The notes beneath the pieces were generated by a model. The model ran no database searches, was not told the origin of the DNA, and saw only the letters and a list, made by a program, of their open reading frames with translations. Both the position numbers and the translations under genes were made by a program. From the IMG/VR virus record IMGVR_UViG_3300035101_000063: DNA of 26,943 nt. One strand, given 5' to 3'. This document shows, one piece after another, positions 1,468 to 25,356 of this stretch. Each line of letters opens with the position of its first letter. Position 1 is the first letter of the stretch. This DNA comes from a virus.

Positions 1468-2097
1468 TCAACCCTCCATCAATAAATTCTTCTCAACCTT
1501 ACTATGCATCCAATGTTCATCAGTTTTGACATGATTTGACCTTACAAATTTGGCCACCCTTTTCTTGAATTCATCATATCGAAAGGAACAAGCATGTCTA
1601 ACAACATATCCCTCTTGTTTATCTTTATTAATTGATAAATCTTTCAGAACATCAACATCAAATTCCCCCCTATACAAAACTGGAACATGAACAATCCCTA
1701 AAAGTTCAAACCATTCAATAGTTTCATCCCAAGATAAGCAAACATTGTTCTCATTCCATATTGAAAACCCATAAAAATATGACTTCAAATTAAGATAACT
1801 TATAGAATGTTTTGCATACAAATTTTCTCCACAAATCCTCCAACCAACCGGTATATCATACCTAATATCAGCCCACATATTTTTTACCCATGCTCTACTA
1901 GGATGAGATAACCCATCAATGCTTCTGGCATGAATATGGTCTCTATACATAGTACAATTCTCACCGTCCATTTTCTCAGTAACAACAATTTCAGACCCAA
2001 CAAAACATGATATATCAGTCAACACCTTATCATCTGAAGCAACTGTCTCAGACCAAGGAAAATGAAATGTTCTAGGATATTTATATAACTTTTCCAT
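1468..2097 (-). CDS. ATP-dependent RNA ligase-like nucleotidyltransferase (Rnl2/Pab1020-like)
   Basis: Contains EKMDGEN, i.e. the KxDGxN lysine-adenylylation motif I of covalent nucleotidyltransferases, with the Asn typical of RNA ligases. N-terminal YPRTFHFPWS segment. GGGGA SD-like motif 8 nt upstream of ATG. Size (209 aa) fits minimal RNA ligases. Confidence 0.55.
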   Translation of the reverse strand: MEKLYKYPRTFHFPWSETVASDDKVLTDISCFVGSEIVVTEKMDGENCTMYRDHIHARSIDGLSHPSRAWVKNMWADIRYDIPVGWRICGENLYAKHSISYLNLKSYFYGFSIWNENNVCLSWDETIEWFELLGIVHVPVLYRGEFDVDVLKDLSINKDKQEGYVVRHACSFRYDEFKKRVAKFVRSNHVKTDEHWMHSKVEKNLLMEG

Positions 2098-3148: not shown

Positions 3149-4066
3149 TTATTCTTGACCAGAATCCCCTTCCGATTCAGAATCCCCTTCCGATTCATCA
3201 ACTAAATCTACCAGATATTCGTTACCGAATACAATTTGGTCCTTTTCTCCATCTACAGACTTAAACGCAATAATCCGATATCCCGTTATATCTTCCATGT
3301 GCCTAAATAAGGAAATCGTATCTATCAAATTTGTACTTGACGCTAAATAATCCATACATACTAGAGACAATGCATGACCATCTTTATCAGTCTCACCAAT
3401 ATCCTTGGCACGATTTATCGCATTTGTAACAACTTCATCTTGTCCACTATAGAGACTAAATGCCCTACGAACCAAAGTTTCTCCAGTAGATTGCTGTCCT
3501 TCTTGCCCATCTCCACCAGACCCATCTCCACCAGAAGTTATTCCTTTCTCTTCTTTTTTGGCTCGAGAAATCATTTCTTCTATTTGTTTAAATGTTTTAC
3601 CTTCCACACGCTTTTTCCAAGATTTAGCATTCTCCTTAACTACAAATCCCATCAGCAATCTGCATTTTGCCCATCCAATACCTCTGAAAAAAGCCTGCAT
3701 AGCAGGTGTCATATTTTCAAACCATGCTTGCAATTTTACAAGATATTGAGCCTTGCGAAGTGTAAAATCTAACTCTTGTTCAACATATTCTTTCCAAGAA
3801 TCAAAACCCCAAGAACGATATCTGTTATTAGTATAAACATCAGCTAAAACAACTCCTAACTCCCAATAATTTTCTTCAGCTTTATTTTTTAATTCCAACA
3901 CCTTTTCTCTGATATCAGCAAATTCAACATCAACAATATTGGCATTTTCTACATCACCTACCGAACCCGAACCATCATTGTTGTTAACAACGGTCAATCC
4001 TGCTTCGTTCACTTTTTGAATTCCTTGTTCATCGCTCATCGTACAGCCCTTTCTGTTGTCTGGCAC
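3149..4066 (-). CDS. hypothetical protein with DUF3102-like domain and acidic repeat C-terminus
   Basis: 305-aa minus ORF. Segment YWELGVVLADVYTNNRYRSWGFDSWKEYVEQEL is paralogous to a segment of the 25356..26057 product. Gly/Asp-rich linker. C-terminal ESEGDS x2 encoded by an 18-nt tandem repeat. Confidence 0.5.
   Translation of the reverse strand: MPDNRKGCTMSDEQGIQKVNEAGLTVVNNNDGSGSVGDVENANIVDVEFADIREKVLELKNKAEENYWELGVVLADVYTNNRYRSWGFDSWKEYVEQELDFTLRKAQYLVKLQAWFENMTPAMQAFFRGIGWAKCRLLMGFVVKENAKSWKKRVEGKTFKQIEEMISRAKKEEKGITSGGDGSGGDGQEGQQSTGETLVRRAFSLYSGQDEVVTNAINRAKDIGETDKDGHALSLVCMDYLASSTNLIDTISLFRHMEDITGYRIIAFKSVDGEKDQIVFGNEYLVDLVDESEGDSESEGDSGQE
3161..3196. repeat. 18-nt tandem repeat x2 (AGAATCCCCTTCCGATTC) encoding ESEGDS-ESEGDS
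   Basis: Direct reading; in-frame in the 3' end of the 3149..4066 gene. Confidence 0.8.
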
Positions 4067-4073
4067 AAAACCA

Positions 4074-4622
4074 TCATTTCTTTAAATTTTCTAACCCAGT
4101 TATCAAAACAGCAAGTGCCTGCCAACAATGACCCTTCACTCCATATAATGGACCAGGTTCTTTTTTGGTACCCACTTGCGGTATCTTACCTCCACCTAAT
4201 GGTAAAAATCTATCAATCACGGCACTTTTTATATTCGCATCAGTAACCGCTTTCCTACTACCAGTTTTAGGATTAACAAATGTTCTTGCTCCACACAATG
4301 TTATTTTTTCATCTCCCCTTAAAATTTCGATAGATTTTTTCATGGTGCTATATTCGTAAGCCTCAACGAATCTACCTATCCATTTTACCGTTTGGAAAGT
4401 TGACTTGCCAACCACCAAACCCATTGACTCAATGTCTTCAATAAAAAAAGCTTCCCATGTCTTAACATCAGGAATCCGAGGGAAATCACCTTCCACTCTT
4501 AATATGGAACGAACAATTTCATTTTCAAGTTCACTAGAAAAAATAATCTTATCATCTACATTATCAAATAACACAAATCCACTTTTGTTTGTACCAGGGT
4601 CAACACCACAAAAAACAGCCAC
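4074..4622 (-). CDS. RuvC-like Holliday junction resolvase (RNase H fold)
   Basis: N-terminus MAVFCGVDPGTNKSGFVLFD matches the RuvC/YqgF signature (GIDPG..xxG.A..) carrying the first catalytic Asp. Size 182 aa. Confidence 0.55.
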   Translation of the reverse strand: MAVFCGVDPGTNKSGFVLFDNVDDKIIFSSELENEIVRSILRVEGDFPRIPDVKTWEAFFIEDIESMGLVVGKSTFQTVKWIGRFVEAYEYSTMKKSIEILRGDEKITLCGARTFVNPKTGSRKAVTDANIKSAVIDRFLPLGGGKIPQVGTKKEPGPLYGVKGHCWQALAVLITGLENLKK

Positions 4623-4642
4623 AACTCAATCTCCCAACTATT

Positions 4643-5680
4643 TTATTTTTTACGTCTATATCCTTTAGGAAAACAAATATCTCTACCAGGACAATATTTA
4701 GGTCTACCCTTACTCTTTAACTGACAATCTTGAAGTCTATCGAATCTATCCTCTAACCATCCATACAAGGACGCCTCATCCTTGAAAAAAGGCTTACCGC
4801 CCTCTACCTCCATTTTATATTTATCGCACATCCTGACAGCTTCTACACACATCAACGCTAATCTTTTCAATCTCTCAACAATACTTTCATCATATAAAAT
4901 CTGATGTTCCATTAATGATGACTTAAAATATGGTACTTCTTTAAATTTATAACCTATACGTGACCTATGAATACCAGTAGCCCACATTCCTAATTGCACT
5001 TGATTAACATGATCTATCCTTGCAGCACCACCTAAACATGGGTCCAAGTCATCCCTTGCTGTTACTTTCTCTGTTTTGAGCTCAAAAACTTCTTCTTCAT
5101 CATCAATCAAAAGTATCGCATCCAATTTTGATACTATACGATACTTTAACATCCTGATTTTCACCTCATCATATTCCCAATCTTTACCTTCCGGCTTGGT
5201 ACCCCAACCCCTAACAATATGACGATCTTCATCATCATTTACTTGATTCCAAAAACTAGACCTAACAAGTTTAAAAATTTTATGCTCAAAATCTTTACCG
5301 ATTGGAACCTCTAGTGGAAAATATTTTTTCCATGCACCTAAAAATTTTACACCCAAACTGGGTAAAGCTGACTTTTGAAATACAGAATGAACGGCTTTAC
5401 CGTATTCCATATTCCAAAGTCCTTCAGCATTTACGATATCATTTATTTTAACAAAAGACTTAATAGCACATAATCTAGGACACCAATATTTTGTACCAGA
5501 AGCATAAAGCCAAAATTCTTTCCATGTTTCATCTTGTGGAACTAATGTCGCTAATCTACTATCAGAGTTATTCTTACTCCATTTTTCTAATAATAAATCT
5601 TGAACACTTGTAGAACGAACAATTGTAAAATTTTCTTTAGCTTCATCAATACTTTTTTTACATATAACATTTCCTAACAT
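4643..5680 (-). CDS. PD-(D/E)XK nuclease, Cas4/RecB-like with Cys cluster
   Basis: Segments ILLIDDEEEVFELKTEK (D...ExK) and QVQLGMW (QhxxY/W-like). One N-terminal Cys pair plus C-terminal Cys (CVEAVRMC ... CPGRDIC) resemble the Fe-S arrangement of Cas4/AddB nucleases. Strong GGAGG SD. Confidence 0.45.
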   Translation of the reverse strand: MLGNVICKKSIDEAKENFTIVRSTSVQDLLLEKWSKNNSDSRLATLVPQDETWKEFWLYASGTKYWCPRLCAIKSFVKINDIVNAEGLWNMEYGKAVHSVFQKSALPSLGVKFLGAWKKYFPLEVPIGKDFEHKIFKLVRSSFWNQVNDDEDRHIVRGWGTKPEGKDWEYDEVKIRMLKYRIVSKLDAILLIDDEEEVFELKTEKVTARDDLDPCLGGAARIDHVNQVQLGMWATGIHRSRIGYKFKEVPYFKSSLMEHQILYDESIVERLKRLALMCVEAVRMCDKYKMEVEGGKPFFKDEASLYGWLEDRFDRLQDCQLKSKGRPKYCPGRDICFPKGYRRKK

Positions 5681-5746
5681 TCAGCCTCCTGACAACAATC
5701 AGCATTTACACAATACTACACAAAAAATAGTTAGTAAACCAAAAAT

Positions 5747-6118
5747 TTAATTAATATCACCCCTTCTTCCGGCATCCTTGTCCATTTCCTTAATAAAAAA
5801 CTTTATATGAAAAACCTTATCCTCATTAGAAATACCAGGATAAAGCTGTCTCATCTGCCCCACCCAATGCTCACCATTGGCATATCCATCCATTTCTGAA
5901 ATAATCGGATCTCTCCTAAACATACCAACAGTACCGGGTCTAACCGTCTGCACTTCTATTTTAGCGAATGGCATATTTCTTTGACCATCTATAAATTTTG
6001 AAGTCAAAACAATTTCCCCTCCCCTAACATGTGGACAATTATCACCATATTTCCTAACAATACCACAAGCCTTACCATCCATAATCTGTTTTGTCTCAAA
6101 TCTTGTACATGCAAACAT
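5747..6118 (-). CDS. hypothetical protein (123 aa), possibly ASCH/PUA-like
   Basis: Minus ORF with AAAGGA SD; preceded 21 nt upstream by the CGAACTCGAGTTCG palindrome. Family assignment is weak. Confidence 0.4.
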   Translation of the reverse strand: MFACTRFETKQIMDGKACGIVRKYGDNCPHVRGGEIVLTSKFIDGQRNMPFAKIEVQTVRPGTVGMFRRDPIISEMDGYANGEHWVGQMRQLYPGISNEDKVFHIKFFIKEMDKDAGRRGDIN

Positions 6119-6139
6119 TTTTTATAATCCTTTCAACTA

Positions 6140-6153
6140 CGAACTCGAGTTCG
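6140..6153. repeat. perfect palindrome CGAACTCGAGTTCG (copy 1 of 3)
   Basis: Exact 14-mer; intergenic, between stop of 6189..6749 and start of 5747..6118. Confidence 0.9.
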
Positions 6154-6188
6154 CCTACTTTCCCTATTTACACAATATGAATCCAAAT

Positions 6189-6749
6189 TCAATTAAACTT
6201 CATATTTTTCTTTTTGCTACTACCATTATTATTAAATGATAAACAATTAACACATATATTATGATCTATAGAATTCAGATGCCCACACTTACAAACCCAT
6301 CCTTTTTCTCTAAACATTGAACTTAAATTTTTGCCAACACTAATAGGGTCATCCAATTTTTGTAAAAGCTTTTCCCTAATAACATTAGCAGCAATCTTAA
6401 AAGAATCAGCATAATGTTTATCACTAACCCATAATCTAATCATTAATACATGTATATTTTTAAAATCATCACCATCTTTAACTGATTCTATATTTCTACT
6501 TGCTATCAATTTCTTTGACCATTCAACATTTTCAATCCATTTTTGTAACAAACATATAAATTTCTCTGTATCATTATTACTTTCAAACAAATGAATCACA
6601 AAATCATATGCCTGAAATTTAATTAATTCTCCATTTTTATTGTCTAAAACCTCTTGTTCTACAGGCTCAATATTATCACCCAATTTTCTCAAACACAAAA
6701 TTGCCTTATCTCGAGGCATACCTATCAATATTTGATCATATTCACCCAT
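6189..6749 (-). CDS. hypothetical protein with C-terminal Zn-ribbon (CKCGHLNSIDHNICVNC)
   Basis: 186-aa minus ORF; CxC...CxxC motif at C-terminus. Confidence 0.45.
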   Translation of the reverse strand: MGEYDQILIGMPRDKAILCLRKLGDNIEPVEQEVLDNKNGELIKFQAYDFVIHLFESNNDTEKFICLLQKWIENVEWSKKLIASRNIESVKDGDDFKNIHVLMIRLWVSDKHYADSFKIAANVIREKLLQKLDDPISVGKNLSSMFREKGWVCKCGHLNSIDHNICVNCLSFNNNGSSKKKNMKFN

Positions 6750-6753
6750 AATA

Positions 6754-7290
6754 TCACCATAAATTCCCTTTCCTTCCCCCTAAATAATATGGGTCAAACA
6801 AAACAGATGGTTCTTTTTTCTTCAAATATTTTTCATCCAATTCAGCATTTTTATACTCATCAATACCATTCTCAATATGTTCCCACACATAACCTATACT
6901 AGGTTCTTTAACACCCAATAAAACCTGACGATAATAAATATTACCTTTTCTATCACGAAAATCACTACATATAAATTGAAAACCATTCCATCGTATATGC
7001 CTTCTTAATGTACTTAAAGCATTTATTTCATATCCTTCCTTCAAAACATAAACACCTAATTTTTCAGGAAATGGACATGGTCTTCTATGCTTATCTATCA
7101 AAAAATCCCAATGAAATATATCACATGTTGGTCGTGTCATCGGCTGAATAGGATTAAATAATAAATATTCATATTCATCCTGTTTCACGTAAGATGATTC
7201 ATTATCCTTACTCACTAACTCCTTTTGAATACCTAAAGCAGAATATAATTTGTCTGTAAAATATTTTATATCACTAAACTCTTCACTCAT
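6754..7290 (-). CDS. hypothetical protein (178 aa)
   Basis: Minus ORF; no family recognised. Confidence 0.45.
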   Translation of the reverse strand: MSEEFSDIKYFTDKLYSALGIQKELVSKDNESSYVKQDEYEYLLFNPIQPMTRPTCDIFHWDFLIDKHRRPCPFPEKLGVYVLKEGYEINALSTLRRHIRWNGFQFICSDFRDRKGNIYYRQVLLGVKEPSIGYVWEHIENGIDEYKNAELDEKYLKKKEPSVLFDPYYLGGRKGNLW

Positions 7291-7374: not shown

Positions 7375-8145
7375 TCAACATGGCATCTCTCTTATCCTGG
7401 CCCACATTGGCCATTCATCAACAATATCACCTTTTCTACTTTTAGAACCATTTTTCTTTGCCCAAACAGTCCCCATCTGCTTGAAAAAAACCCTACAACC
7501 AAGAAGTTTAGCATATGACACAATCTTCTCAGCATTATTTTCGTTCATTTCCCTTGCTTTTTGACCAGATTCTCCACCAATAATCACCCATTCAATCCCA
7601 CGAAGATTAAAAAAATCATCCTCTACTGGAGTAACATAAGGACTAAAAATATCACCAATTAATGGTTCAAAAGATACAAATTTATGTTCAACATTCGTAC
7701 CTCTCAAAATATTAATTCTATTAACTGTTTGTCTCAATCCAACAGATACACCGTACCAAACATGGTCAAGAAATCCATTCCTTTCTTGAAAATATCTATT
7801 CATTATCTGAGCTCTTTTTGTCAAAACAATATACTTATGATGATTATATTTATTCATTGCATCATGCATATCATCAATAAAACTAAATGGTACTTCAGAA
7901 TGAAAAGGGTCTCCCATCGAACATATAAAAACCCATCTAGGTCTAGTCCATTCACCTAATTTTTTAAGCACATCTGGATGACAACGAACATCAAATCCAT
8001 CCTCATAATTCTTTTGACCCATTGCTTTCAATCGCATAGCCATTTTTTCAGCATAACAATTATCACATTCTGGACTAATCTTTGAACAACCCGTCACTGG
8101 ATTTAATGTTGCATCAGTCCAATGAATCGCACTCTTATCTCCCAT
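7375..8145 (-). CDS. phage Gp37/Gp68 family protein (DUF5131)
   Basis: N-terminus IHWTDATLNPVTGCSKISPECDNCYAEKMAMRL matches the hallmark WTDATWNP..GC...S.GC.NCYA of the Gp37/Gp68 family. Confidence 0.6.
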   Translation of the reverse strand: MGDKSAIHWTDATLNPVTGCSKISPECDNCYAEKMAMRLKAMGQKNYEDGFDVRCHPDVLKKLGEWTRPRWVFICSMGDPFHSEVPFSFIDDMHDAMNKYNHHKYIVLTKRAQIMNRYFQERNGFLDHVWYGVSVGLRQTVNRINILRGTNVEHKFVSFEPLIGDIFSPYVTPVEDDFFNLRGIEWVIIGGESGQKAREMNENNAEKIVSYAKLLGCRVFFKQMGTVWAKKNGSKSRKGDIVDEWPMWARIREMPC

Positions 8146-8210: not shown

Positions 8211-8591
8211 TCAACTCTTCCATATACCCATTTCTATTTTTGTCTTTTTGTACTCTCTTTTTCTGTACTCTCTTTTTATTTTACTGTTCTTCTTTACAAC
8301 TTCAACTCTTGTTCTTTCATCACAAATCATAACTTTAATATCTTTACCATATAATTTCTTCAAATCATTAGATACTTTTCCAATTACAGATTCAGACAAA
8401 CGATTTGCTGGTAATCCTTCAGTATCAATATGAACAACCAACATATCACCAGGATTAATACTAACCCTTGTTACTTCTTTTATTTTTATAAAATCATCAC
8501 TTTTAGGCATATGATATGCCATTTCTGCAAATTCTTCACCACCAATATCCATACCTATTTTTTTGAAATCTTCTTCTAATGTAGTTCTCAT
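8211..8591 (-). CDS. hypothetical protein with basic C-terminal tail
   Basis: Minus ORF; ATGA start/stop overlap with upstream gene; AGAAGG SD. Lys/Arg-rich C-terminus. Confidence 0.45.
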   Translation of the reverse strand: MRTTLEEDFKKIGMDIGGEEFAEMAYHMPKSDDFIKIKEVTRVSINPGDMLVVHIDTEGLPANRLSESVIGKVSNDLKKLYGKDIKVMICDERTRVEVVKKNSKIKREYRKREYKKTKIEMGIWKS

Positions 8592-8962
8592 TTTGTCAAC
8601 CTTCTAAATTCCTCAAAAACCCTTGCTGGAATCATTACCCAATCCCTATCGGTGGTACTATCAAATTCCCCTCCCTTTATTTCTATAGCCAATGCAGGTT
8701 CGCAATTATTATCTTCTGCTTCTCTGGAAATTTTCTTTAACCAGTCCCATTTAACAGAAATACTTGCTTTTTTAGTTTGTTTTGCCTCAATCAAGAATTC
8801 TTTATCTCTCACATAAACATCCCTGACATCTCCTTTTGAATGATAATTAGCACCAGACCCACCAACACGCTTACCACCAAATCTTTTAGCTAACCGATTC
8901 TCTTGTTCTGTTGGACTTCCACCACTACTACCAATATATCTCCTAGGTTCATATTTTCCCAT
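8588..8962 (-). CDS. hypothetical protein, candidate small PD-(D/E)XK (VRR-NUC-like) nuclease
   Basis: GDVRD...FLIEAKQTKK resembles the D...ExK core; size about 120 aa is typical of VRR-NUC. Weak call. Confidence 0.3.
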   Translation of the reverse strand: MGKYEPRRYIGSSGGSPTEQENRLAKRFGGKRVGGSGANYHSKGDVRDVYVRDKEFLIEAKQTKKASISVKWDWLKKISREAEDNNCEPALAIEIKGGEFDSTTDRDWVMIPARVFEEFRRLTK

Positions 8963-10202
8963 CTAATATCCTATCCAATAAAATCTTCCTAAGCTTTTCG
9001 AAAGTAGCTGGTTCTTCTATTCTAGCCATAGCATCCTTTTTTCTAGTATATTTTTCATTACCAACATACCATGTCTTATTTGAACCATCTCCAACTTCTC
9101 TATACATATTTAATTTAGAAGCCATACCAATAACATATTTTAATTCATCTATTTTTCCAGCATTATCCCCTGCAATCCACATATAATAACTACCCATTTG
9201 TTTTGCAGGTGCCGTCTTGTTCTTTTCGGTCTTATAACTAACTTTCACTCTAGTACCAATTTCAGACATCAAATCCTTACCAAAAATATCCTTATCTTGT
9301 TCCTCTTTAGTCCATTTTGATGTCCAAAAATTTACAATTGTACTAGCAAAAAACAATTGTCCTTTTCCTGATGTCATCACACGATTATCACCGAATGATG
9401 ACCCACCAATTTTTTCCCTAAATTGATTTATCCAAATATGTGTTGGTGCTCTACCTTTTGACTTCATAACAGAAGTAATACTAGATAACACTTTCCTAAT
9501 AAACTTATTCATCAGTCTCGCTTGCAATCCTTGTTGCCATTCAGCTAAACTATTCTCAATTTCTGCAGATGGTGTCATAGCAGCAATAGAATCAAGCACA
9601 AACAAATCAATTTCTCCAGTTCTTACTAAACTCTCATATATATCACATACCTCCTCTGTTGTTTCAGCTTGAACATACAATAATCTACGAATATCAACAC
9701 CCAATTTTGCAGCCCATACCTTATCAAATGTCCCTTCTGGGTCAAAAAATACAACACTAAATTCTTCATACGAATTTTCTTTATATCTTTCTAATCGTTT
9801 TTTAAAATCAGATTCTTTTTCATCATCATACTTAATAGGCTTAAAAATCCCACGACTAAAACAATCACACTTTCCTTCTGCACTCCAGTATGTATCACCT
9901 TCTGAATCAACAACTTCTGAAACACTCAAATCTTTTACTGGCCTATAACAATTTGCACATATATTTTGAGCAAGTCCTATTACCCGTAAAGCATTTGTTG
10001 TCTTTCCAGATGATTCATCTCCAGCAAAAATAGTTGTTCTACCAACAGCAATACCACCACCTAATGCCCTATCAAAAGATAAACTACCTGTTGACAATCT
10101 AGGTATATTCTTAACAGAACCAGCACTACCAATTGTTCCAGAACCATGTTCTTTGTTGATCAATCTCTTAAGCACTGAAAGGCCAGGACGCTTTGTGTCC
10201 AT
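8949..10202 (-). CDS. recA: RecA-family recombinase with about 68-aa Cys4 insertion
   Basis: IPRLSTGSLSFDRALGGGIAVGRTTIFAGDESSGKTT aligns with E. coli RecA [35 protein letters not shown]. Later FFDPEGTFDKVWAAKLGVDIRRLLYVQAETTEE...LDSIAAMTPSAEIE aligns with RecA [24 protein letters not shown]...VDSVAALTPKAEIE. Between them lies a CANCYRP...GKCDC insertion. Confidence 0.8.
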   Translation of the reverse strand: MDTKRPGLSVLKRLINKEHGSGTIGSAGSVKNIPRLSTGSLSFDRALGGGIAVGRTTIFAGDESSGKTTNALRVIGLAQNICANCYRPVKDLSVSEVVDSEGDTYWSAEGKCDCFSRGIFKPIKYDDEKESDFKKRLERYKENSYEEFSVVFFDPEGTFDKVWAAKLGVDIRRLLYVQAETTEEVCDIYESLVRTGEIDLFVLDSIAAMTPSAEIENSLAEWQQGLQARLMNKFIRKVLSSITSVMKSKGRAPTHIWINQFREKIGGSSFGDNRVMTSGKGQLFFASTIVNFWTSKWTKEEQDKDIFGKDLMSEIGTRVKVSYKTEKNKTAPAKQMGSYYMWIAGDNAGKIDELKYVIGMASKLNMYREVGDGSNKTWYVGNEKYTRKKDAMARIEEPATFEKLRKILLDRILDGKI

Positions 10203-10203
10203 T

Positions 10204-10794
10204 TCATATCCCTTTGTCGCTTTCTAATGATTTAATTCTAGAAAATTGGTCTGCAATATCAGAAGCCATATCATCAGATATAACCTCAAATATTTCTACA
10301 ATATTATCATTATCAGAAATTGGTATCTCTTCCATTGTATCTACCTGATGAGATTCATATTCTTTAGCTCCCTTTAACGTCAAACCATATGAAATAAATA
10401 TATTCCTATCCATACAGGCATTCAAAATACCAATTGTATTTGCTTCAAATTGTGGCTTATATTCTTTTTCTTCAAGTCCATATTCCTCCCTTTTAAGCAT
10501 TTCCAAAATAAAATCTTTAACAGCTCTTTTAACAATAGAATAATCATCACTATTATCAAATTTCACTTTAACAGAAAGCTTAATCCTACCAAACTCATAT
10601 CTTCTAAGCGCAATTGTTCTTCCTGCACTAAATCCATAAGAAAACAAATCAGTGCGATTAGAATGAATACCTATCTTACCGCTTCCGTTATGAGAACCTG
10701 AATATCCTTTTGGTTCACCTTTGTATCTTACTAATTTAGACTTACAAACATTACCTTCATTTTCAATTTTCATCTTTTCCTCCTCATTCAACAA
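10204..10794 (-). CDS. hypothetical protein (196 aa)
   Basis: Minus ORF; TGAAATG coupling to RecA gene. Confidence 0.45.
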   Translation of the reverse strand: MLNEEEKMKIENEGNVCKSKLVRYKGEPKGYSGSHNGSGKIGIHSNRTDLFSYGFSAGRTIALRRYEFGRIKLSVKVKFDNSDDYSIVKRAVKDFILEMLKREEYGLEEKEYKPQFEANTIGILNACMDRNIFISYGLTLKGAKEYESHQVDTMEEIPISDNDNIVEIFEVISDDMASDIADQFSRIKSLESDKGI

Positions 10795-10827: not shown

Positions 10828-11340
10828 TCAACAAATATTTACACCTAACTTAATCCATTCTTTAACTATTTTATTATAAATTTCTGTATCAAGGAATAGA
10901 ATAATACCTCTTGATTGCAATACCATTTTAACAATTAAAATCATACCAATACTATACAATCTTTTTCCTCTACCAGTTTTAAATGGTGTATCAGGTATAA
11001 CACCCGATTTAATCCAATTTTTTACTGTAGATACAGGACGACCAATATTTTCAGCTAAATCATTAATTGAAAGACCAACACACTTTTTGCCATTAACAAT
11101 AATATAAATAGGACCATTATTACGTTTTCTTGGTTTAGATTTTGGTATTTTTCCTTCAGCTCTTAATTTATCCATCTCAGCTTTTTTTTTGGCCCTATTT
11201 AATCTTGCTAATTCCTTTGCACGCTCTCTCACCTTGGAATCATTTTGATATCTTTCTTTCTTTCGTTCTGAAATTTTTTCTCTGTTTGTTTCATAATACA
11301 TACGTTGATATTCTTTTCGACTATCGGAACTACTACTCAT
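10828..11340 (-). CDS. HTH DNA-binding protein (MerR/excisionase-like helix-turn-helix near C-terminus)
   Basis: LSINDLAENIGRPVSTVKNWIKSGVIP is a typical HTH_17/MerR-type motif. Track ORF extends to 11454 and overlaps the helicase gene by 80 nt. An internal ATG at 11340 (MSSSSDSRKEY), preceded by a GGAAGGAA SD-like motif, is the more likely start. Confidence 0.45.
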   Translation of the reverse strand: MSSSSDSRKEYQRMYYETNREKISERKKERYQNDSKVRERAKELARLNRAKKKAEMDKLRAEGKIPKSKPRKRNNGPIYIIVNGKKCVGLSINDLAENIGRPVSTVKNWIKSGVIPDTPFKTGRGKRLYSIGMILIVKMVLQSRGIILFLDTEIYNKIVKEWIKLGVNIC

Positions 11341-11374
11341 AAAACCATTCCTTCCATCCCCAATGTTCCGAAAA

Positions 11375-12889
11375 TCAAGACACCTCTGTTCCAATTTTCC
11401 TATAGAACTTCTGTCTGCGCCTCCATTTCGGTAAAAGCTGGGGAATATTCTCATCTACGACATCAACTATAATAGGTTTAGGTTTTTCTTTACAATTACC
11501 AACTCTCCATGGACAATAATGTTCGCATTTTTCCTTGTCTTGATAACACCACCTTCTAGCGCGACCAACTATTTGTTCTATATCTCCCATAGGCATCGAA
11601 AGAACCAACACATCAAGCGCTTCAACATCAAATCCTTCCTCGATGCTTTGCTTAGTTGCAAAAATTACATTAGCACGTTCTGCTTTATCAAAATCAGCTT
11701 CTGTTCTTTTGACCATTTTAGGGTCACCTTTTTTATGCCTACTATTTGATTCTTCCCATACTTCTCCAGAAAACCATTCACCAGTACAAAAATCAATAGT
11801 AGGTTCAAATGGCAAATCAAGGTCAAATAAAGAATTCATCAACATGTCACTCATAAGTTTCAAATGATAAAGTCTTTCACTAACAACTATTATTTTACGA
11901 CCATTTTGAACAGCCAATACTAATTGATCAACAATATCTTTTGCTCTAAACTGATCCTTTCCAAGCTGAGTTAAAATTTGAGCACTATTCAAATTATCAA
12001 CTGATACATAATAATTACCCCTTCTTATCGGTTTCAAACATGAATAAGTCTTTAACACTCTCAAACCAGGCACTTGCGCCTTAGTTTTAGCAGAATATGT
12101 AACATCACTTATATGATTAAAAAATACGTCCTGTGCACCATCTTTTCGTCTAGGAGTTGCTGTTAAACCAACTCTCCATGCAGCATTAAATCTAGGTAAA
12201 ACAAATGACCATGAAGAAGCAGCTATTCTATGACATTCATCACTAATAACAATTCCGAATTCCGATTTATATATCCTTTCTGGATACTTATGACTATCTT
12301 TATCCCTCACTAAAGATTGAAGCATTGCAATAACAAAATCACAATCCTCAAATTCACATTTATTCTGACGAATAATTCCAACTTTAGCATCTGGCATAAA
12401 TTTTTTTATTCTATTCTTCCATTGTTTTAAAAAAAACTCTTTATGAACAATAATTAATGTCTTACGGCCAACACGTCTAGCAAACTCCAATGAACACGCT
12501 GTTTTTCCAAAAGCGCATCCTGCTTTCAACAAAAAACCATCCCACTTTTTACCCTCCATTCTAGCAAGAAATGTTCTTATTACAGCTTCCTGTTCAATGA
12601 AATTTCCAGTTGCCTGATATCTAGTAGTAAAGGCTGACATTTTACTACCATATGATATTTTTAATATTTCATCATGTTCCTTTGTAACATTTTTCCTATA
12701 CCATGCTCTAGGAACACCAATGAAATCCTCCTTTTCATCATACATATAAATAGGCTTTGGATCTGCCTTTGTAGCAATATCTGTCGTCTTCTTAGGATAT
12801 ATCGTTAATAATTCTTTTATATTTAAAATCTGTTGAGCAGACAAATCATCAATTGGCAACCAAACATTTCCACTTACAACAACTTTCAT
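11375..12889 (-). CDS. SF2 DExH-box DNA helicase (UvsW/type III res-like)
   Basis: Walker A AGCAFGKTACS, DECH box (VISDECHRIAA), arginine finger QIVGRARR; length 504 aa comparable to T4 UvsW. C-terminal Cys cluster. Confidence 0.8.
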   Translation of the reverse strand: MKVVVSGNVWLPIDDLSAQQILNIKELLTIYPKKTTDIATKADPKPIYMYDEKEDFIGVPRAWYRKNVTKEHDEILKISYGSKMSAFTTRYQATGNFIEQEAVIRTFLARMEGKKWDGFLLKAGCAFGKTACSLEFARRVGRKTLIIVHKEFFLKQWKNRIKKFMPDAKVGIIRQNKCEFEDCDFVIAMLQSLVRDKDSHKYPERIYKSEFGIVISDECHRIAASSWSFVLPRFNAAWRVGLTATPRRKDGAQDVFFNHISDVTYSAKTKAQVPGLRVLKTYSCLKPIRRGNYYVSVDNLNSAQILTQLGKDQFRAKDIVDQLVLAVQNGRKIIVVSERLYHLKLMSDMLMNSLFDLDLPFEPTIDFCTGEWFSGEVWEESNSRHKKGDPKMVKRTEADFDKAERANVIFATKQSIEEGFDVEALDVLVLSMPMGDIEQIVGRARRWCYQDKEKCEHYCPWRVGNCKEKPKPIIVDVVDENIPQLLPKWRRRQKFYRKIGTEVS

Positions 12890-14139: not shown

Positions 14140-15486
14140 CTAAAATGGTATCCCCTCTTCCTCTTCATTATTTTCCTCTTCTTCAATTTCACCAAACTCC
14201 ATTCTATCAAAATCCCAATGAACCTTTATCTCTGGTTTCTTATATTGACCTCTACGAAGTTTTAAATTTTTAAATTTCATTACTTTATCATCTTTATCAT
14301 CTTTATTTTGTATTAATGCATAAACAGCATGAACATCCTGCCCAATCTCATCAGCTAATGCAATTGTTCCAAGCCTTGCCCCTCCCCCCTTCTTCTCCGA
14401 AAGCTCAGCAGTCCTATTCTGCTGTGCAAAACCTATCGCAGCATAGCCAAGCTCCTTGCAACTTCGCTTCATCCATCCAAGAGCCTCCACGGCTCTTTCA
14501 CGACGATCCCCTTTAATATGTAGGTCATAAATCGAATCAACAGCAACAAGCTCAGCATTACAAGCACGAATTGCAGCATCTATACCACGCGGACTCAAAT
14601 CATCATCAGAATCCATAATCCACAATCCATCCTTACCAGCCTCACCATTAATTGTATTTACAAATTTTTGCTCCATAACAGTTGGAAGTTGACCAGTAAT
14701 AACACTATGGTAACTAACATCAGAATGGATAGTAAAAAATCTCTCAGCTATCTCATCTTTACTCATTTCTGGTGAAACAACCAAGACACGTTTATCTTTC
14801 ATCCAGGCATGTCTACCACATATAACACAGACGAACGTTTTCCCAACTGAAGGTCGAGCAACAAACATAGTAACAGTTTTGGGCCATGCACCTGCCGTCA
14901 TATCATCTATTGTTTTCCACGGAAATGGAATACCCCTATATCCATCAGCAGCCTTTCTATAATTCTCAAGAACCTTTCCTCCAATATCCAATAAATTATG
15001 TGGCATTCTATGCCTAGAAAGGTCCTGTGCTGCATTCAACAGGGATTCAAGACTAGGAGATAAAGAATCTATACCTTCTGCTTTAAATCCATCATAAACA
15101 ACTTTCTGAGCATTATAAATTACACGACGTATAGCACTAGCTTCCCTAACTATATTTGCATAATGACCCACATTTGATGGTGCAGATACAAAATCTGTCA
15201 ATTGCGATAATGCAATTGCACCACCTATATTTTTTAATTGACCTTGCTCTCTTAATCTATTTCCTAATGTGACATGATCAACAGGTATCCCAGCCTCGAA
15301 CAAAGAATACATGCCATAAAAAATTATTCTATTGGAATTTATATAAAAATCTTCTTCATTTACATTAGCAAAAACTTCACCCCAACAATCATTATTCAAA
15401 AGAACAGATCCAAGAACAGCATTTTCAGCTTCTTCATTGTATGGTGGTATATTAGGTCCACCTTTAGAATCGCAAATATTGCTCAT
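14140..15486 (-). CDS. dnaB: DnaB-like replicative DNA helicase with acidic ...EEEEGIPF C-terminal tip
   Basis: N-terminal domain (PPYNEEAENAVLGSVLLNNDCWGEV...NRIIFYGM...IPVDHVTLGNRL...GGAIALSQL), Walker A ARPSVGKTFVCV, RecA-like C-terminal domain. Appended EEEENNEEEEGIPF tail. Confidence 0.85.
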   Translation of the reverse strand: MSNICDSKGGPNIPPYNEEAENAVLGSVLLNNDCWGEVFANVNEEDFYINSNRIIFYGMYSLFEAGIPVDHVTLGNRLREQGQLKNIGGAIALSQLTDFVSAPSNVGHYANIVREASAIRRVIYNAQKVVYDGFKAEGIDSLSPSLESLLNAAQDLSRHRMPHNLLDIGGKVLENYRKAADGYRGIPFPWKTIDDMTAGAWPKTVTMFVARPSVGKTFVCVICGRHAWMKDKRVLVVSPEMSKDEIAERFFTIHSDVSYHSVITGQLPTVMEQKFVNTINGEAGKDGLWIMDSDDDLSPRGIDAAIRACNAELVAVDSIYDLHIKGDRRERAVEALGWMKRSCKELGYAAIGFAQQNRTAELSEKKGGGARLGTIALADEIGQDVHAVYALIQNKDDKDDKVMKFKNLKLRRGQYKKPEIKVHWDFDRMEFGEIEEEENNEEEEGIPF

Positions 15487-15633: not shown

Positions 15634-16329
15634 TCAATTACCACTTAATATAGACTTTAATCTATCTACAGAGCCATCTCTCTTATTATCACCAATAACA
15701 GGAACAGGAATTGTACATTCTCCTAAAGCATGAATAGTAGATTTTTTCAAATCAAGTTCTTCTTGCCAACGTTTTGGAGAAATATTTGAAGTAATTATAG
15801 TAACTTTTTTATTTGCATTTCTAGACCTAATTAATTCATCAAAAATCGTTGCACCAAAACCAGTATTATCCATTATACCCTTTCCAAAATCATCAATTAC
15901 TAATACATCTACATCTTTAGAACGTTCCCAATATGTCTCATCATCATCAAAATATTCTTTACTAGCAACCAATCGTTTTAAATCAGCAGCTTCTATAAAT
16001 AAAACAGTATTACCACGTCTGCGAAATTCTTTTGCTAAAACAACAGAAGCACATGATTTCCCAGTTCCATTATCACCATAAAATATAAAACCACCACCTT
16101 CTTTTCTCATTTTAGCCATATTTAAAATATATTTTTCAACCATACTTTTAAGACTATCTTGTCCATCTACATAAATATCTGTAAGATTATAAAAACTTGC
16201 TTTCCAATAACGTTTAGGTATATGCATTCGCTCCAAATCATTAGCACATAAATCGCGCCGAAAAGGAACATTAGAAAACATTTTACCAGCCAATTTTTGT
16301 TGACCCATCAAGTTCTGGATCATATTCAC
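15634..16329 (-). CDS. DnaC/IstB-like AAA+ helicase loader
   Basis: Walker A GDNGTGKSCASVVLAKEF, Walker B VLVIDDFG, size 231 aa, located immediately downstream of DnaB-like gene. Confidence 0.7.
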   Translation of the reverse strand: MNMIQNLMGQQKLAGKMFSNVPFRRDLCANDLERMHIPKRYWKASFYNLTDIYVDGQDSLKSMVEKYILNMAKMRKEGGGFIFYGDNGTGKSCASVVLAKEFRRRGNTVLFIEAADLKRLVASKEYFDDDETYWERSKDVDVLVIDDFGKGIMDNTGFGATIFDELIRSRNANKKVTIITSNISPKRWQEELDLKKSTIHALGECTIPVPVIGDNKRDGSVDRLKSILSGN

Positions 16330-17153: not shown

Positions 17154-17596
17154 TCTAATCCCTTAATTTTCCTAGCATCATCTACTAGAATCTCTCTATG
17201 GTCATTCATCCAAATTGGAGCACGAAAAATAACATCATTCCAAGACCAACCATCAAGCACTAACAACTCAGCAGCAATCACATTATATAATATATTATTT
17301 TGTTCAGATATTAATTTAGCACTATTTAATATATCTCTTAATCTATCATAAAATAATACAAAATGGTCTTCATTAGGTCTATTTAATATAATACTATTTC
17401 CATCATCTAATAAGATTTCAATAGAATTCACACCAAATGCTTCTGATAATTCAAAAACAACTTCACCCATTCCAAATAAAATTAAATCTTCTAAATCAAA
17501 TTTATCATTAAATTCATCATTAAATTCATCATTAAATTCATCATTAAATTCATCATTAACATGTTTTATAGGAAATAATAAATTATTTTCTTTCAT
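17084..17596 (-). CDS. hypothetical protein with N-terminal (NDEF)x4-5 tandem repeat
   Basis: Minus ORF; repeat encoded by 12-nt tandem array. Confidence 0.45.
   Translation of the reverse strand: MKENNLLFPIKHVNDEFNDEFNDEFNDEFNDKFDLEDLILFGMGEVVFELSEAFGVNSIEILLDDGNSIILNRPNEDHFVLFYDRLRDILNSAKLISEQNNILYNVIAAELLVLDGWSWNDVIFRAPIWMNDHREILVDDARKIKGLEWLENTSSAIKSKQNMVSDGLEK
17498..17557. repeat. 12-nt tandem repeat AAATTCATCATT x5 (first copy imperfect) encoding DEFN repeats
   Basis: Direct reading. Confidence 0.85.
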
Positions 17597-22619: not shown

Positions 22620-22967
22620 TTATTCTTTATCTTCAACTTCGTCTTCAACTTCGTCTTCAACTTCGTCTTCAACTTCGTCTTCAACTATACCTAAAATATC
22701 ACTCCAAGGTATAACAACACGTTTCTCACGACCAAAATTTATCTCTGTACCTGAATATCTTCCAATAAAAATCCTATCACCAACTTTTACATCAGGAATA
22801 ACAAGTGTTCCATCAGACATTACCCTACCAGGACCAACAGCCAAAACAACAGCAGTATCTGGAACTTCTTTAGTATTCAAAGGAAGTACAATACCACCAG
22901 GTGATTTCTTTTCCGCTGGTTCATCTCTCTCCACAAATACATTATCATGAAACGGTTTTATTTTCAT
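22620..22967 (-). CDS. groES: co-chaperonin GroES (Hsp10) homologue with (EDEV)n acidic repeat tail
   Basis: MKIKPFHDNVFVERDEPAEKKSPGGIVLP...AVVLAVGPGR...VKVGDRIFIGRYSGTEI...VIPWSDILGIV aligns along its whole length with GroES (MNIRPLHDRVIVKR.E.E.KSAGGIVL...GEVLAVGNGR...VKVGDIVIF..Y.G........ESDILAIV). AAGGA SD 8 nt upstream of the ATG at 22967; the track Met at 22982 lies inside the SD. Confidence 0.8.
   Translation of the reverse strand: MKIKPFHDNVFVERDEPAEKKSPGGIVLPLNTKEVPDTAVVLAVGPGRVMSDGTLVIPDVKVGDRIFIGRYSGTEINFGREKRVVIPWSDILGIVEDEVEDEVEDEVEDEVEDKE
22631..22686. repeat. 12-nt tandem repeat CTTCAACTTCGT x about 4.7 encoding the EDEV repeats of the GroES tail
   Basis: Direct reading. Confidence 0.85.
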
Positions 22968-23206
22968 CTTATATCCTTCCATTTCTTAATCAACTGTCCT
23001 ATTTCCATAACACGATTACTATCTTCAACAGTCAATCTTGACGAAATAGAACGACAACCTTTTTTCTTCTTTGCTCCTGCAACAAATATTACATCATCAA
23101 CAGAAATTACTCCATTATCAATTGCTTCTTTACCGAAATTTTCAACCAAACCAAATGACTCAAGCAACCCAACAGCCATATTATCACCAAAATCAATCCT
23201 CAACAT
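22964..23206 (-). CDS. hypothetical protein (80 aa)
   Basis: Minus ORF, ATGA-coupled to groES-like gene. Confidence 0.4.
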   Translation of the reverse strand: MLRIDFGDNMAVGLLESFGLVENFGKEAIDNGVISVDDVIFVAGAKKKKGCRSISSRLTVEDSNRVMEIGQLIKKWKDIR

Positions 23207-23444: not shown

Positions 23445-24593
23445 TCATACGTCAATATCATCAAATAATCGCATCTGTCTTTTTCTCATAGCTGCATTAA
23501 TCCTTGATTTTGCTAATTCAAAATACTCCCTATCAATTTCTATACCAACAAAATTAAATCCCTCCATCACTGCCCCTCTACCAGTCGACCCAGATCCCAT
23601 AAATGGGTCCAAAATAACCCCATCCATTTGAGTTACAAGCCTACACAAATATTTCATTAAATCTGTAGGCTTTACTGTTTCATGAAAATTCCCAATAAAT
23701 TCTCTATTTCTACAATCACTCAATAACATTCCATGTTTAAATTGTGGTCTACTACTATTCAACCCGTCATCACGGTCTTTTTTCTTGGCTTTTGAACAAT
23801 AAAAAAATCTAGCTTTATTGCCCATCAACCTAACTGGACATGCTGGATGACATTTCCAATCTTCTATCGTTTCAAATCCATTTTCATCACCATGTCTAAT
23901 CCAAGACCCTCTATAATCAAATTGAGAATATACATTTTTCCCTGGTTTAGATGGTTCAAGTCCAGATAATGAACCACTTTTATTTCTTACCTTTTTATAT
24001 CCTAAAAATTCACAATCAGGATGATGAGATAAAATAATGTTTGATGGCCATCTACCATCTTCATTTGGAATATATACTACTCCAGCCTTTTTCATAAATG
24101 TACCTATACCTATATAATCACTCTTTCTTTCTTTAAACTTAATATTATCATCAGTTAATATTCTAGAATCATCTATATTTAACCCACCAGTATTATAAAC
24201 TCCAATATTATCTTTAATAGAACCAATATATTTTTTCCTTGCCAAACAAATAGGTTCATTAGCTGGCTTTAAAGAATATTTGCTCTTAGGAAATCCATTA
24301 CCAAATATCCATTGAATTTGGTCCAATATTTCAAATCCAGCATCTTCTATATTCACAACAAGTCTGTGATATGTTCTGACACCACCAAATGAAAGTAAAT
24401 GTCCTCCAGGTTTTAATACTCTCAAACACTCTTTCCATATATCAACAGATGGAACACTATAATCCCATTTTTTTGACATAAATTTAATGCCATATGGTGG
24501 GTCTGTAACTATAGAATCTATACAATTATCTTCAAACTCTTTAATAACTGATAAACATTCACCACAAAACAAATCAACTGGTTTCTCAAACAT
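23445..24593 (-). CDS. DNA methyltransferase, beta-class N6-adenine/N4-cytosine (N6_N4_Mtase family), orphan
   Basis: Motif IV DPPYG near N-terminus (IDSIVTDPPYGIKF). Motif I FxGxG near C-terminus (LDPFMGSGSTGRGA). No restriction partner in view. Confidence 0.75.
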   Translation of the reverse strand: MFEKPVDLFCGECLSVIKEFEDNCIDSIVTDPPYGIKFMSKKWDYSVPSVDIWKECLRVLKPGGHLLSFGGVRTYHRLVVNIEDAGFEILDQIQWIFGNGFPKSKYSLKPANEPICLARKKYIGSIKDNIGVYNTGGLNIDDSRILTDDNIKFKERKSDYIGIGTFMKKAGVVYIPNEDGRWPSNIILSHHPDCEFLGYKKVRNKSGSLSGLEPSKPGKNVYSQFDYRGSWIRHGDENGFETIEDWKCHPACPVRLMGNKARFFYCSKAKKKDRDDGLNSSRPQFKHGMLLSDCRNREFIGNFHETVKPTDLMKYLCRLVTQMDGVILDPFMGSGSTGRGAVMEGFNFVGIEIDREYFELAKSRINAAMRKRQMRLFDDIDV

Positions 24594-24609
24594 ATAAATC
24601 CACCATAAT

Positions 24610-25356
24610 TCAAAATAAACCTAATTGCCTACCACCTTTATAACCATCTATTTGATAATAAACAACTTCACTACTTTTCCGCCTTTCTCCATCCTTGACA
24701 ATAGTACTATTAGAATCACACAAACGATTAAAATCAAGCCATTTAGCACCATAATTTTCACAAACTATAACTTGACCATGTCTTTCAATCGACCAATTAG
24801 CCAATTTTTCATAATTTAAACGACTAGAACCATAATGATAATATTTACCTGCATCAACATATGGTGGGTCTATAAACCATGTAGCATTTTCATTTTCTAT
24901 TTCAACATACGATTTATTAACTATTTTCCAATGTCTTATATACCTCAACTGACGTGCTATCCTATTCTTAATATATATACTCCAAAAAGATTTAGGTCGT
25001 GTACCACCTTTCATCCATTTAGATGGCAATTTACAAGGATGGTCAGACCCTTTACTCAACCAAAATCCTATCAAATATTTAGCACCTTCTGATACTGATA
25101 AATCATCAACATTATCAAAATCTGTAGGCAAAGAAAGAATATCTGATTCACTAGCATTAATCAAATAATCCCATAATATACAAATTTTTTCATCTAAATC
25201 ATAAAGAAGAACATCCTTATAATAATACCTAACTGAATACCCAGCAGAGCCAGCAAATGGTTCTATTATTCTATTATATAATGGAGCATCATATGATAAT
25301 GAAAGCCTCCATTTGCCACCATAATATGTAAAAAACGGAAACAAATTAGATGACAT
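24610..25356 (-). CDS. Dam-like N6-adenine DNA methyltransferase (D12 class, alpha group), orphan
   Basis: N-terminal YYGGKWRL (Dam YxGGK signature), motif I EPFAGSAG, then motif IV DPPY (TWFIDPPYVDAG). Confidence 0.75.
   Translation of the reverse strand: MSSNLFPFFTYYGGKWRLSLSYDAPLYNRIIEPFAGSAGYSVRYYYKDVLLYDLDEKICILWDYLINASESDILSLPTDFDNVDDLSVSEGAKYLIGFWLSKGSDHPCKLPSKWMKGGTRPKSFWSIYIKNRIARQLRYIRHWKIVNKSYVEIENENATWFIDPPYVDAGKYYHYGSSRLNYEKLANWSIERHGQVIVCENYGAKWLDFNRLCDSNSTIVKDGERRKSSEVVYYQIDGYKGGRQLGLF

Follow-up and report, generated by a model that had tools for sequence, protein, structure and literature searches.

A RecA-family recombinase of uncultivated phages with a conserved, probably metal-binding Cys4 module behind Walker A

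RecA and Rad51 are among the most studied DNA enzymes, and they are normally regulated by separate mediator proteins or by terminal tails. Small structural zinc sites have precedents among recombination proteins, such as T4 gp32, RecR and RecO, and RadA/Sms is a recombination ATPase of the RecA superfamily that carries a Cys4 zinc finger. More generally, conserved enzymes have often acquired zinc-knuckle insertions in the course of evolution. Here we describe a RecA-family recombinase with a four-cysteine (Cys4) module inserted into its ATPase core, encoded on a 26,943-nucleotide stretch of viral DNA (IMG/VR record IMGVR_UViG_3300035101_000063), the whole of which is called the window below. 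It differs from gp32, RecR and RecO, which have other folds, never carry the zinc site inside a recombinase ATPase core and show no detected sequence similarity to it, and from RadA/Sms, a hexameric helicase with a separate N-terminal zinc finger, a KNRFG motif and a Lon-like C-terminal domain. In a full-text literature search no account of a RecA-type recombinase with a Cys4 or zinc module inside it came up, and such a module is mentioned neither in a comparative overview of jumbo phages nor in a 2026 paper on new phage UvsX structures.

With bacterial RecA (E. coli; structures 3CMU, 7JY6 and 8TRG) the protein has in common the N-terminal helix, the core and the C-terminal domain, Walker A and B, the catalytic Glu, the equivalent of Q194, loops L1 and L2 and the KNK motif. 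It differs in the 68-residue Cys4 module, in the lack of an acidic C-terminal tail and in an expansion at residues ~296-312, and in the fold alignment it is ~26% identical to solved RecA structures. The phage UvsX-like and RecA-like proteins of PHROG 97 (phiCTP1 gp71, Vibrio phage vB_VhaS-a, Streptomyces phage BRock gp80) are likewise recombinases of replication and recombination modules, and they share a variable loop between the P-loop helix and strand beta2, which in some of them holds inserts of 45-50 residues, whereas the Cys4 module is matched in none of 50,697 GenBank phage records. In Rad51 the connection between helix 1 and strand 2 of the RecA-homology domain is known as the Schellman loop, a prominent feature of the outer filament surface that lies far from the ATP site, the subunit interface and L1/L2, and mutations in it change the properties of the filament and possibly its contacts with partners (PMC4333388). 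This loop (P147-G152 in human RAD51) occupies the same topological position as our module, from the post-Walker A helix to beta2, but it is a loop of six residues from the eukaryotic Rad51 lineage and lacks a metal site.

A RecA core interrupted by a Cys4 module

Relatives of the protein were collected in a search of 5.8 billion clustered proteins, which gave 3417 matches, and the best 120 of these were examined. Used below are a MAFFT alignment of 119 relatives, a cleaned alignment of 114 sequences (A1), and a profile of the module alone (A2). The structural statements refer to an AlphaFold2 (AF2) model built on A1, with its predicted local distance difference test (pLDDT) values. The features of the gene, from the N-terminal side, are as follows.

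8949-10202, minus strand: RecA-family recombinase gene, 417 amino acids, harbouring the insertion (open reading frame list, Pfam, PHROG, AF2, Foldseek)
9999-10022, minus strand: Walker A or P-loop, G61-DESSGK67-T68, aligned to GPESSGKT of E. coli; G61 and K67 invariant
9759-9962, minus strand: inserted Cys4 module, residues 81-148, from the translation, without RecA counterpart; block-mean pLDDT ~93-97
9948-9959, minus strand: first Cys pair, C82-A-N-C85; both Cys invariant, N84 kept in >=90%, commonest forms CANCLR and CANCYR
9876-9926, minus strand: acidic beta-hairpin, residues 93-109 (strands 93-98 and 104-109, DSSP on the model)
9861-9869, minus strand: second Cys pair, C112-D-C114; both Cys in 119/119 relatives and invariant in A1
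9777-9815, minus strand: module helix, residues 130-142 (DSSP), with conserved F133, R136 (114/119) and Y140
9768-9776, minus strand: N143-S144-Y145, the return into the RecA core; N in 116/119, S in 118/119, Y or F in 119/119
9735-9755, minus strand: strand beta2 and catalytic Glu, V150-VFFDP-E156, aligned to CAFIDAE of E. coli; E156 invariant

The open reading frame matches the Pfam family RecA (PF00154) with 150.5 bits against a cutoff of 27 (E=7.7e-44) and PHROG 97, "UvsX-like recombinase", with E=5e-49, in both cases as two stretches with the insertion between them. A phmmer search against all PDB sequences aligned residues 32-84 with E. coli RecA up to ...AAQREGKT and residues 150-320 from CAFIDAEH onward, and left ~65 residues without a PDB partner. 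Because the Pfam and phmmer alignments are split around this unmatched gap, residues 81-148 are a real insertion between the post-Walker A helix and strand beta2. The translation of window positions 9759-9962 (minus strand) reads ICANCYRPVKDLSVSEVVDSEGDTYWSAEGKCDCFSRGIFKPIKYDDEKESDFKKRLERYKENSYEEF. The initial annotation, which was made from the sequence alone and which had proposed a RecA homologue with an insertion of about 68 residues after Walker A and a CxxC...CxC pattern inside it, is thus borne out on all three counts: the family by Pfam, PHROG 97 and the RecA filaments found with Foldseek, the segment by an exactly identical translation with no RecA counterpart in the alignments, and the pattern by C82xxC85 and C112xC114.

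The AF2 model is of high confidence (pLDDT 94.7, predicted template modelling score, pTM, 0.92) and consists of an N-terminal helix at residues 6-19 that corresponds to the polymerisation helix, the ATPase core, and a C-terminal domain at residues 340-413. In a Foldseek search of the PDB, RecA filaments (7jy6, 8trg, 8s70, 3cmu) head the list with E values of ~1e-28 to 1e-25. The template modelling (TM) score normalised to the target is 0.81-0.84 for single-subunit chains, and the alignments to 7jy6, 8trg and 8s70 extend over 412-415 columns including gaps; normalised to our protein the score is only ~0.66, because the insert is covered by no solved structure.

The catalytic and DNA-binding residues are all retained as well. 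In the mature numbering of E. coli RecA, K67 corresponds to K72, E156 to E96, D204 to D144, N259 to N193, Q260 to Q194, R262 to R196, G279 to G212, F284 to F217, and K327-N328-K329 to K248-N249-K250. Among these K67, E156, D204, N259, Q260, R262 and G279 are invariant in A1, and F284 and the KNK triplet are near-invariant, the latter being kept in >=90% of the alignment. The Walker A Lys, the Walker B Asp, the catalytic Glu, the gamma-phosphate sensor Gln, the L2 Gly and the trans-acting KNK are therefore all present, and judged by these residues the protein is a catalytically complete RecA-type ATPase, for which filament formation and strand exchange are predicted. The NCBIfam equivalog model of cellular recA, TIGR02012, gives 164.6 bits and stays below its cutoff of 325.3; by this score the protein is a divergent member of the RecA family and no orthologue of cellular RecA. 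The models of RadA/Sms, archaeal RadA and Dmc1 match the P-loop region only, and an assignment to RadA/Sms was rejected (TIGR00416, 23.4 bits against a cutoff of 403). As a separate observation, the core contains a second, smaller family-specific expansion in a beta-hairpin at residues ~296-312 (window 9267-9317, minus strand), which reads SKWTKEEQDKDIFGKDLMSEIG as compared with RRIGAVKEGENVVGSE in E. coli.

In the model the chain runs from the P-loop helix (67-78) through C82-A-N-C85, the hairpin, C112-D-C114, a well-ordered loop (115-129, block pLDDT 93-97) and the module helix (130-142) into strand beta2 (150-153), so that the two Cys pairs flank the hairpin in sequence, one at each end. 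The module has a pLDDT of ~96 in the full-length context, and modelled alone as 72 residues it still reaches a pLDDT of 94 with a pTM of 0.73. In the 158 members compared, the Cys pairs are separated by 13-108 residues (median 27), and the net charge of this stretch is negative in 149 of them (median -4, or -0.14 per residue), while the segment after the CxC pair, which measures 15 to ~60 residues, is about neutral or slightly basic (+0.03 per residue) and the rest of the protein has +0.01. The last 25 residues have a family median charge of +1, as compared with -7 in E. coli RecA, and the family is thus without the acidic C-terminal tail.

Conservation, insertion site and carriers of the module

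The segment is present in all of the best 120 matches, which are 37-100% identical to the protein and mostly 400-450 residues long. The aligned relatives keep C112 and C114 in every one of 119 rows and C82 and C85 in 117, the remaining two being gaps in truncated sequences; N84, R87, G118, E128, R136, N143 and S144 are kept in >=90%. This settles in favour of the initial annotation the question whether the Cys positions are conserved. In A1 the mean column identity is 41%, and all four Cys are among just 20 invariant columns. They are invariant in every full-length member, down to 36% identity (range 36-81%). Since the cysteines are invariant at a mean column identity of only 41%, the module is no chance feature.

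Profile A2 was also searched against 1.84 billion representatives of 50%-identity clusters without a word filter, and 67 proteins were found at E<=1e-3. All but one of these 67 clusters are RecA-like and carry the module at the same position, so that relatives with the same insertion, which the initial annotation had suggested looking for, do exist. The module starts near residue 80 (about 80-160) in those full-length members that have neither an N-terminal extension nor an intein. Every full-length match has the four Cys, the apparent exceptions being fragments or variants of the NS[FY] motif, and none of the 67 clusters showed a clade member that lacks the Cys. The single protein that is not RecA-like, P0162, is a repeat protein of 652 residues in which a unit of about KPVKQEGEKTADYRARVEAWK occurs six times in tandem. 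Its match to the profile is limited to the helix part (E-K-x-x-D-[YF]-x-x-R-[VL]-x-x-[YW], E=4.9e-7) and may reflect either a common peptide motif or chance. Going by these matches, the module appears to be confined to one RecA clade and to define it, and because it is found only there, a single acquisition is suggested.

Homology of the module to a known domain was considered and rejected. Against PDB sequences A2 gave nothing significant (best E=0.72), the module segment alone matched no Pfam family at E<=10, and a tblastn search with the module in the 50,697 GenBank phage records returned a capsid match at E=2 only. As far as the PDB, Pfam and these phage records reach, the module appears in no solved structure, no Pfam family and no cultured phage.

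The insertion site itself is variable. Within the clade, large insertions and deletions are tolerated at the tip of the hairpin and after the CxC pair, and outside it the junction between the P-loop helix and beta2 is a short loop in E. coli, Pseudomonas phage SM1 and Streptomyces phage BRock. At this same junction gp71 of the Clostridium phage phiCTP1 (L018) has an insert of ~50 residues with no Cys, and the faecal phage MT835482 (L016) has one of ~45 residues with isolated Cys but no Cys4 set. Homology of these two inserts to the module was rejected, as both gave negative hmmsearch scores with the filters off. An exposed and permissive site fits the tolerated length changes and the unrelated inserts in other phage RecAs. 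By these alignments the junction is a variable loop across the wider family and an insertion hot spot, and the unusual element is the strictly conserved Cys4 module. The possibility that the segment merely corresponds to a variable loop, which was one of the doubts attached to the initial annotation, is therefore true of the site in the wider family, yet within the clade the Cys ligands are invariant.

The carriers are uncultivated large tailed phages, since the contigs of members are 90-197 kb long and also encode DnaB, a DnaC-like loader, a DnaG-type primase and a T4-type portal. Scans with the single protein recovered one contig from IMG/VR, a 157-kb relative at 50% identity, and from the species genomes of GTDB just two contigs of metagenome-assembled genomes (MAGs). 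One of the latter, L011 (CAYUTF010000026.1), holds a relative of 81% identity in a bin labelled "uncultured archaeon", and the other, L012 (CAYRYW010000002.1), a relative of 50% identity in a bin labelled "uncultured Dehalococcoidales"; further relatives are binned with Anaerolineaceae. Going by gene content (DnaB, DnaC and the T4-type portal in relatives), L011 and L012 are probably mis-binned phage contigs, and the bin labels are for this reason no guide to the phage host. True inteins are frequent in this phage group. RecA inteins are located at the P-loop (P0038, with HNH, and P0129) or after position ~167 of the RecA profile (P0124, with Hint and LAGLIDADG matches, and P0136, with a LAGLIDADG match only), and in L007 inteins also occur in the ResIII helicase and in the T4-type portal (3984-6776 and 17272-17317; the gene is cut by the end of the locus).

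Genes around recA

The window represents a phage replication and recombination region with its genes all on the minus strand. The genes that bear on the recombinase, in their order along this strand, are as follows.

15634-16329, minus strand: DnaC-like loader
14140-15486, minus strand: DnaB-like helicase
11375-12889, minus strand: superfamily 2 (ResIII) DNA helicase, first gene of the cassette (Pfam ResIII E=5.5e-24; phrog_16 E=1.6e-39)
10828-11454, minus strand: protein of 208 amino acids containing a helix-turn-helix, second conserved upstream neighbour (Pfam HTH_17 E=5.6e-5, below the gathering cutoff)
10204-10794, minus strand: protein of 196 amino acids of no recognised family, ending 1 nucleotide before the recA start (ATG)
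8588-8962, minus strand: PD-(D/E)xK or Hjc-like Holliday-junction resolvase (phrog_2002 E=2.3e-23; weak Pfam Hjc and PDDEXK_15)

The resolvase gene overlaps the recA stop by 14 nucleotides, and a resolvase is close to the Cys4-module recA in all eight of the distinct neighbourhoods compared (the window, L001 and L004-L009). The order helicase, 208-residue protein, 196-residue protein, RecA and resolvase recurs in L004, L007, L008 and L009 at RecA identities of 39-47%, and a tight operon is conserved in most of the loci compared, where RecA identities are 39-80%. Gene by gene, the ResIII helicase lies upstream also in L001, L004, L007, L008 and L009, and homologues of the 208-residue protein are found in L001, L004, L007 and L008, and weakly in L009. 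The called start of this latter protein overlaps the helicase gene by 80 nucleotides; because its homologues have only 172-182 residues, the true start is probably an internal Met. Homologues of the 196-residue protein stand directly upstream of recA in L001, L007 and L008 (E=1e-13 to 1e-107), and the tie to L009 is indirect, via L007 (E=5e-10). A word search gave just five close homologues of it, and searches of PHROGs, Pfam, NCBIfam and the PDB, the last also with a profile, returned nothing. It may be a recombination accessory protein. In L005 and L006 the module has a Lys-rich expansion, and the upstream genes are others, encoding a 538-residue protein and an ARPP-1 protein.

Several further observations concern the window as a whole (1-26943), in which every substantial open reading frame is on the minus strand, the guanine plus cytosine (GC) content is 29-37% and the GC skew stays strongly negative from end to end (-0.29 to -0.55). 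No tRNA genes were found in it. Two distinct Holliday-junction-resolvase-like genes lie within 5 kb of each other, the one described above and another matching phrog_1770 (E=1.3e-11). The latter and the remaining recognisable genes are listed here.

1468-2097, minus strand: RNA ligase (phrog_24030 / phrog_34045)
4074-4622, minus strand: second Holliday-junction-resolvase-like gene (phrog_1770)
7375-8145, minus strand: DUF5131 protein (E=3e-69)
22620-22982, minus strand: GroES-like co-chaperonin (phrog_3188)
23445-25356, minus strand: two adjoining DNA methyltransferases

Possible roles of the module

The reading we prefer, with a probability of about 0.55, is a composite one. The four Cys would hold one structural Zn2+, and the module would be displayed on the exterior of the presynaptic filament, at a distance from ATP, from DNA and from the interfaces between subunits, as judged from Rad51 and from the tolerance of the site to length changes. 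There it would form a lineage-specific docking or regulatory surface for partners in phage recombination and replication, while the RecA core would perform the usual filament formation and strand exchange. The parts of this reading differ in strength. A metal site is likely, as C82xxC85 and C112xC114 offer four candidate ligands in two short pairs that are invariant in full-length members, and because these Cys, arranged as CxxC and CxC, flank a hairpin on both sides, the metal is probably zinc. Display on the outer filament surface is about as likely as the metal site, and it is probable by analogy with Rad51 and from the indel tolerance of the site. A specific partner or regulatory role is more tentative and falls somewhat below an even chance. 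Candidate partners are offered by the proteins of the conserved cassette.

A number of points weigh against this reading. Fold searches with the isolated module returned no zinc ribbon and no other analogue, so that "zinc-ribbon-like", the term of the initial annotation, describes the Cys pattern and is unconfirmed as a class of fold. The outer-surface placement is transferred from Rad51, and neither this protein nor RecA is its source. As for the neighbours, the 196- and 208-residue proteins are absent from L005 and L006 despite the module there, co-location with a resolvase is expected for any recombinase, and the proteins of the cassette are candidate partners only. Zinc-knuckle decorations on permissive loops can moreover be functionally neutral. 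An alternative that we regard as unlikely, though the least so of the rivals, is that a single phage lineage came to retain a small metal-clamped excursion at a surface loop that tolerates it, with a stabilising effect on structure but no specific partner or regulatory role. The unrelated inserts of phiCTP1 gp71 and MT835482 at the same site, the wide length variation of the hairpin and of the segment behind it, and the candidate status of the cassette partners all suit such a neutral decoration. It accounts less well for the surface-type residues R87, E128 and R136, kept in >=90% of relatives across ~36-81% identity, for D113, kept in 105/119, for a hairpin charge that is negative in 149/158 members, and for the failure to see a single Cys-less clade member in 67 clusters.

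The acidity of the hairpin has given rise to another explanation, namely that it is an autoregulatory or DNA-mimicking flap which replaces the acidic C-terminal tail of bacterial RecA and which may gate DNA binding or filament nucleation, or contact the single-stranded DNA-binding protein (SSB). The charges are in line with this, since the family tail has a median of +1 where E. coli has -7, and the hairpin a median of -4, or -0.14 per residue as compared with +0.01 elsewhere; however, the support is a charge correlation alone, and a position on the outer surface would leave the hairpin far from the DNA sites, so we consider a flap of this kind distinctly unlikely. A little more credence, though still little, goes to the broader proposal that the acidic hairpin, clamped by zinc, serves the recombinase as a built-in control element, whether as a flap that mimics DNA or the SSB tail, as a dedicated docking site that could draw the helicase, the resolvase or the uncharacterised proteins of the cassette straight to the exterior of the presynaptic filament, or as a shield that could guard the filament against anti-recombinases of the host or against defence sensors directed at phage recombinases. 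Binding of iron instead of zinc, either as a rubredoxin-type Fe(Cys)4 site or as an iron-sulphur (Fe-S) cluster, would make the recombinase responsive to redox state or oxygen. CxxC...CxC at the ends of a hairpin also fits rubredoxin-like sites, and the contigs come from probably anoxic samples, with relatives binned with Dehalococcoidales, Anaerolineaceae and an uncultured archaeon. Set against this, no Fe-S family in Pfam matched, the fold searches found no rubredoxin, and the spacing and small knuckle geometry are typical of single-ion Cys4 sites and not of cubane clusters, which makes iron improbable. Many zinc ribbons bind nucleic acids, and some members (P0055, P0024, P0068) have Lys-rich expansions after the CxC pair, as might be expected of a secondary DNA-binding zinc finger that catches duplex or single-stranded DNA for the homology search; but 94% of members have an acidic hairpin, the residues behind the CxC pair are close to neutral overall, and profile searches of the PDB, Pfam and fold searches show no likeness to any DNA-binding zinc domain, so we think such a finger very improbable. 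Scarcely credible, finally, is a degenerate mini-intein or another mobile-element footprint. Its attraction is that the invariant C82 at the start and N143-S144 at the end resemble splice junctions in a conserved C...N|S pattern, in a RecA family where inteins are common, whereas the stretch from C82 to N143 spans just 62 residues, where an intein has at least ~130, and contains neither a His nor a TxxH block. At E<=10 Pfam returns no match to Hint or Intein families, the modelled hairpin and helix do not form a Hint fold, and the recognisable inteins of the family lie at the P-loop or after profile position ~167, never at the module site. The initial annotation had likewise judged the segment too short for an intein and devoid of Hint motifs.

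Returning to the composite reading of a zinc-stabilised docking or regulatory surface, what is new is the variant and not the kind: a RecA protein with a lineage-specific and probably metal-binding module. A whole clade of large environmental phages has fixed this probable metal module in the ATPase core, at the position of the outer-surface loop of Rad51, and the finding also flags a conserved five-gene recombination cassette with two uncharacterised proteins. If the module were dispensable, its site would still mark a place where RecA tolerates engineered insertions, for example tags, or fusions for use in recombinase-based amplification. If the control-element reading were true, this would be the first strand-exchange protein of the RecA/Rad51 type to be regulated via a metal module built into its ATPase core. 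The module is a natural handle on how the exterior of a recombinase filament may be used for partner recruitment or self-control.

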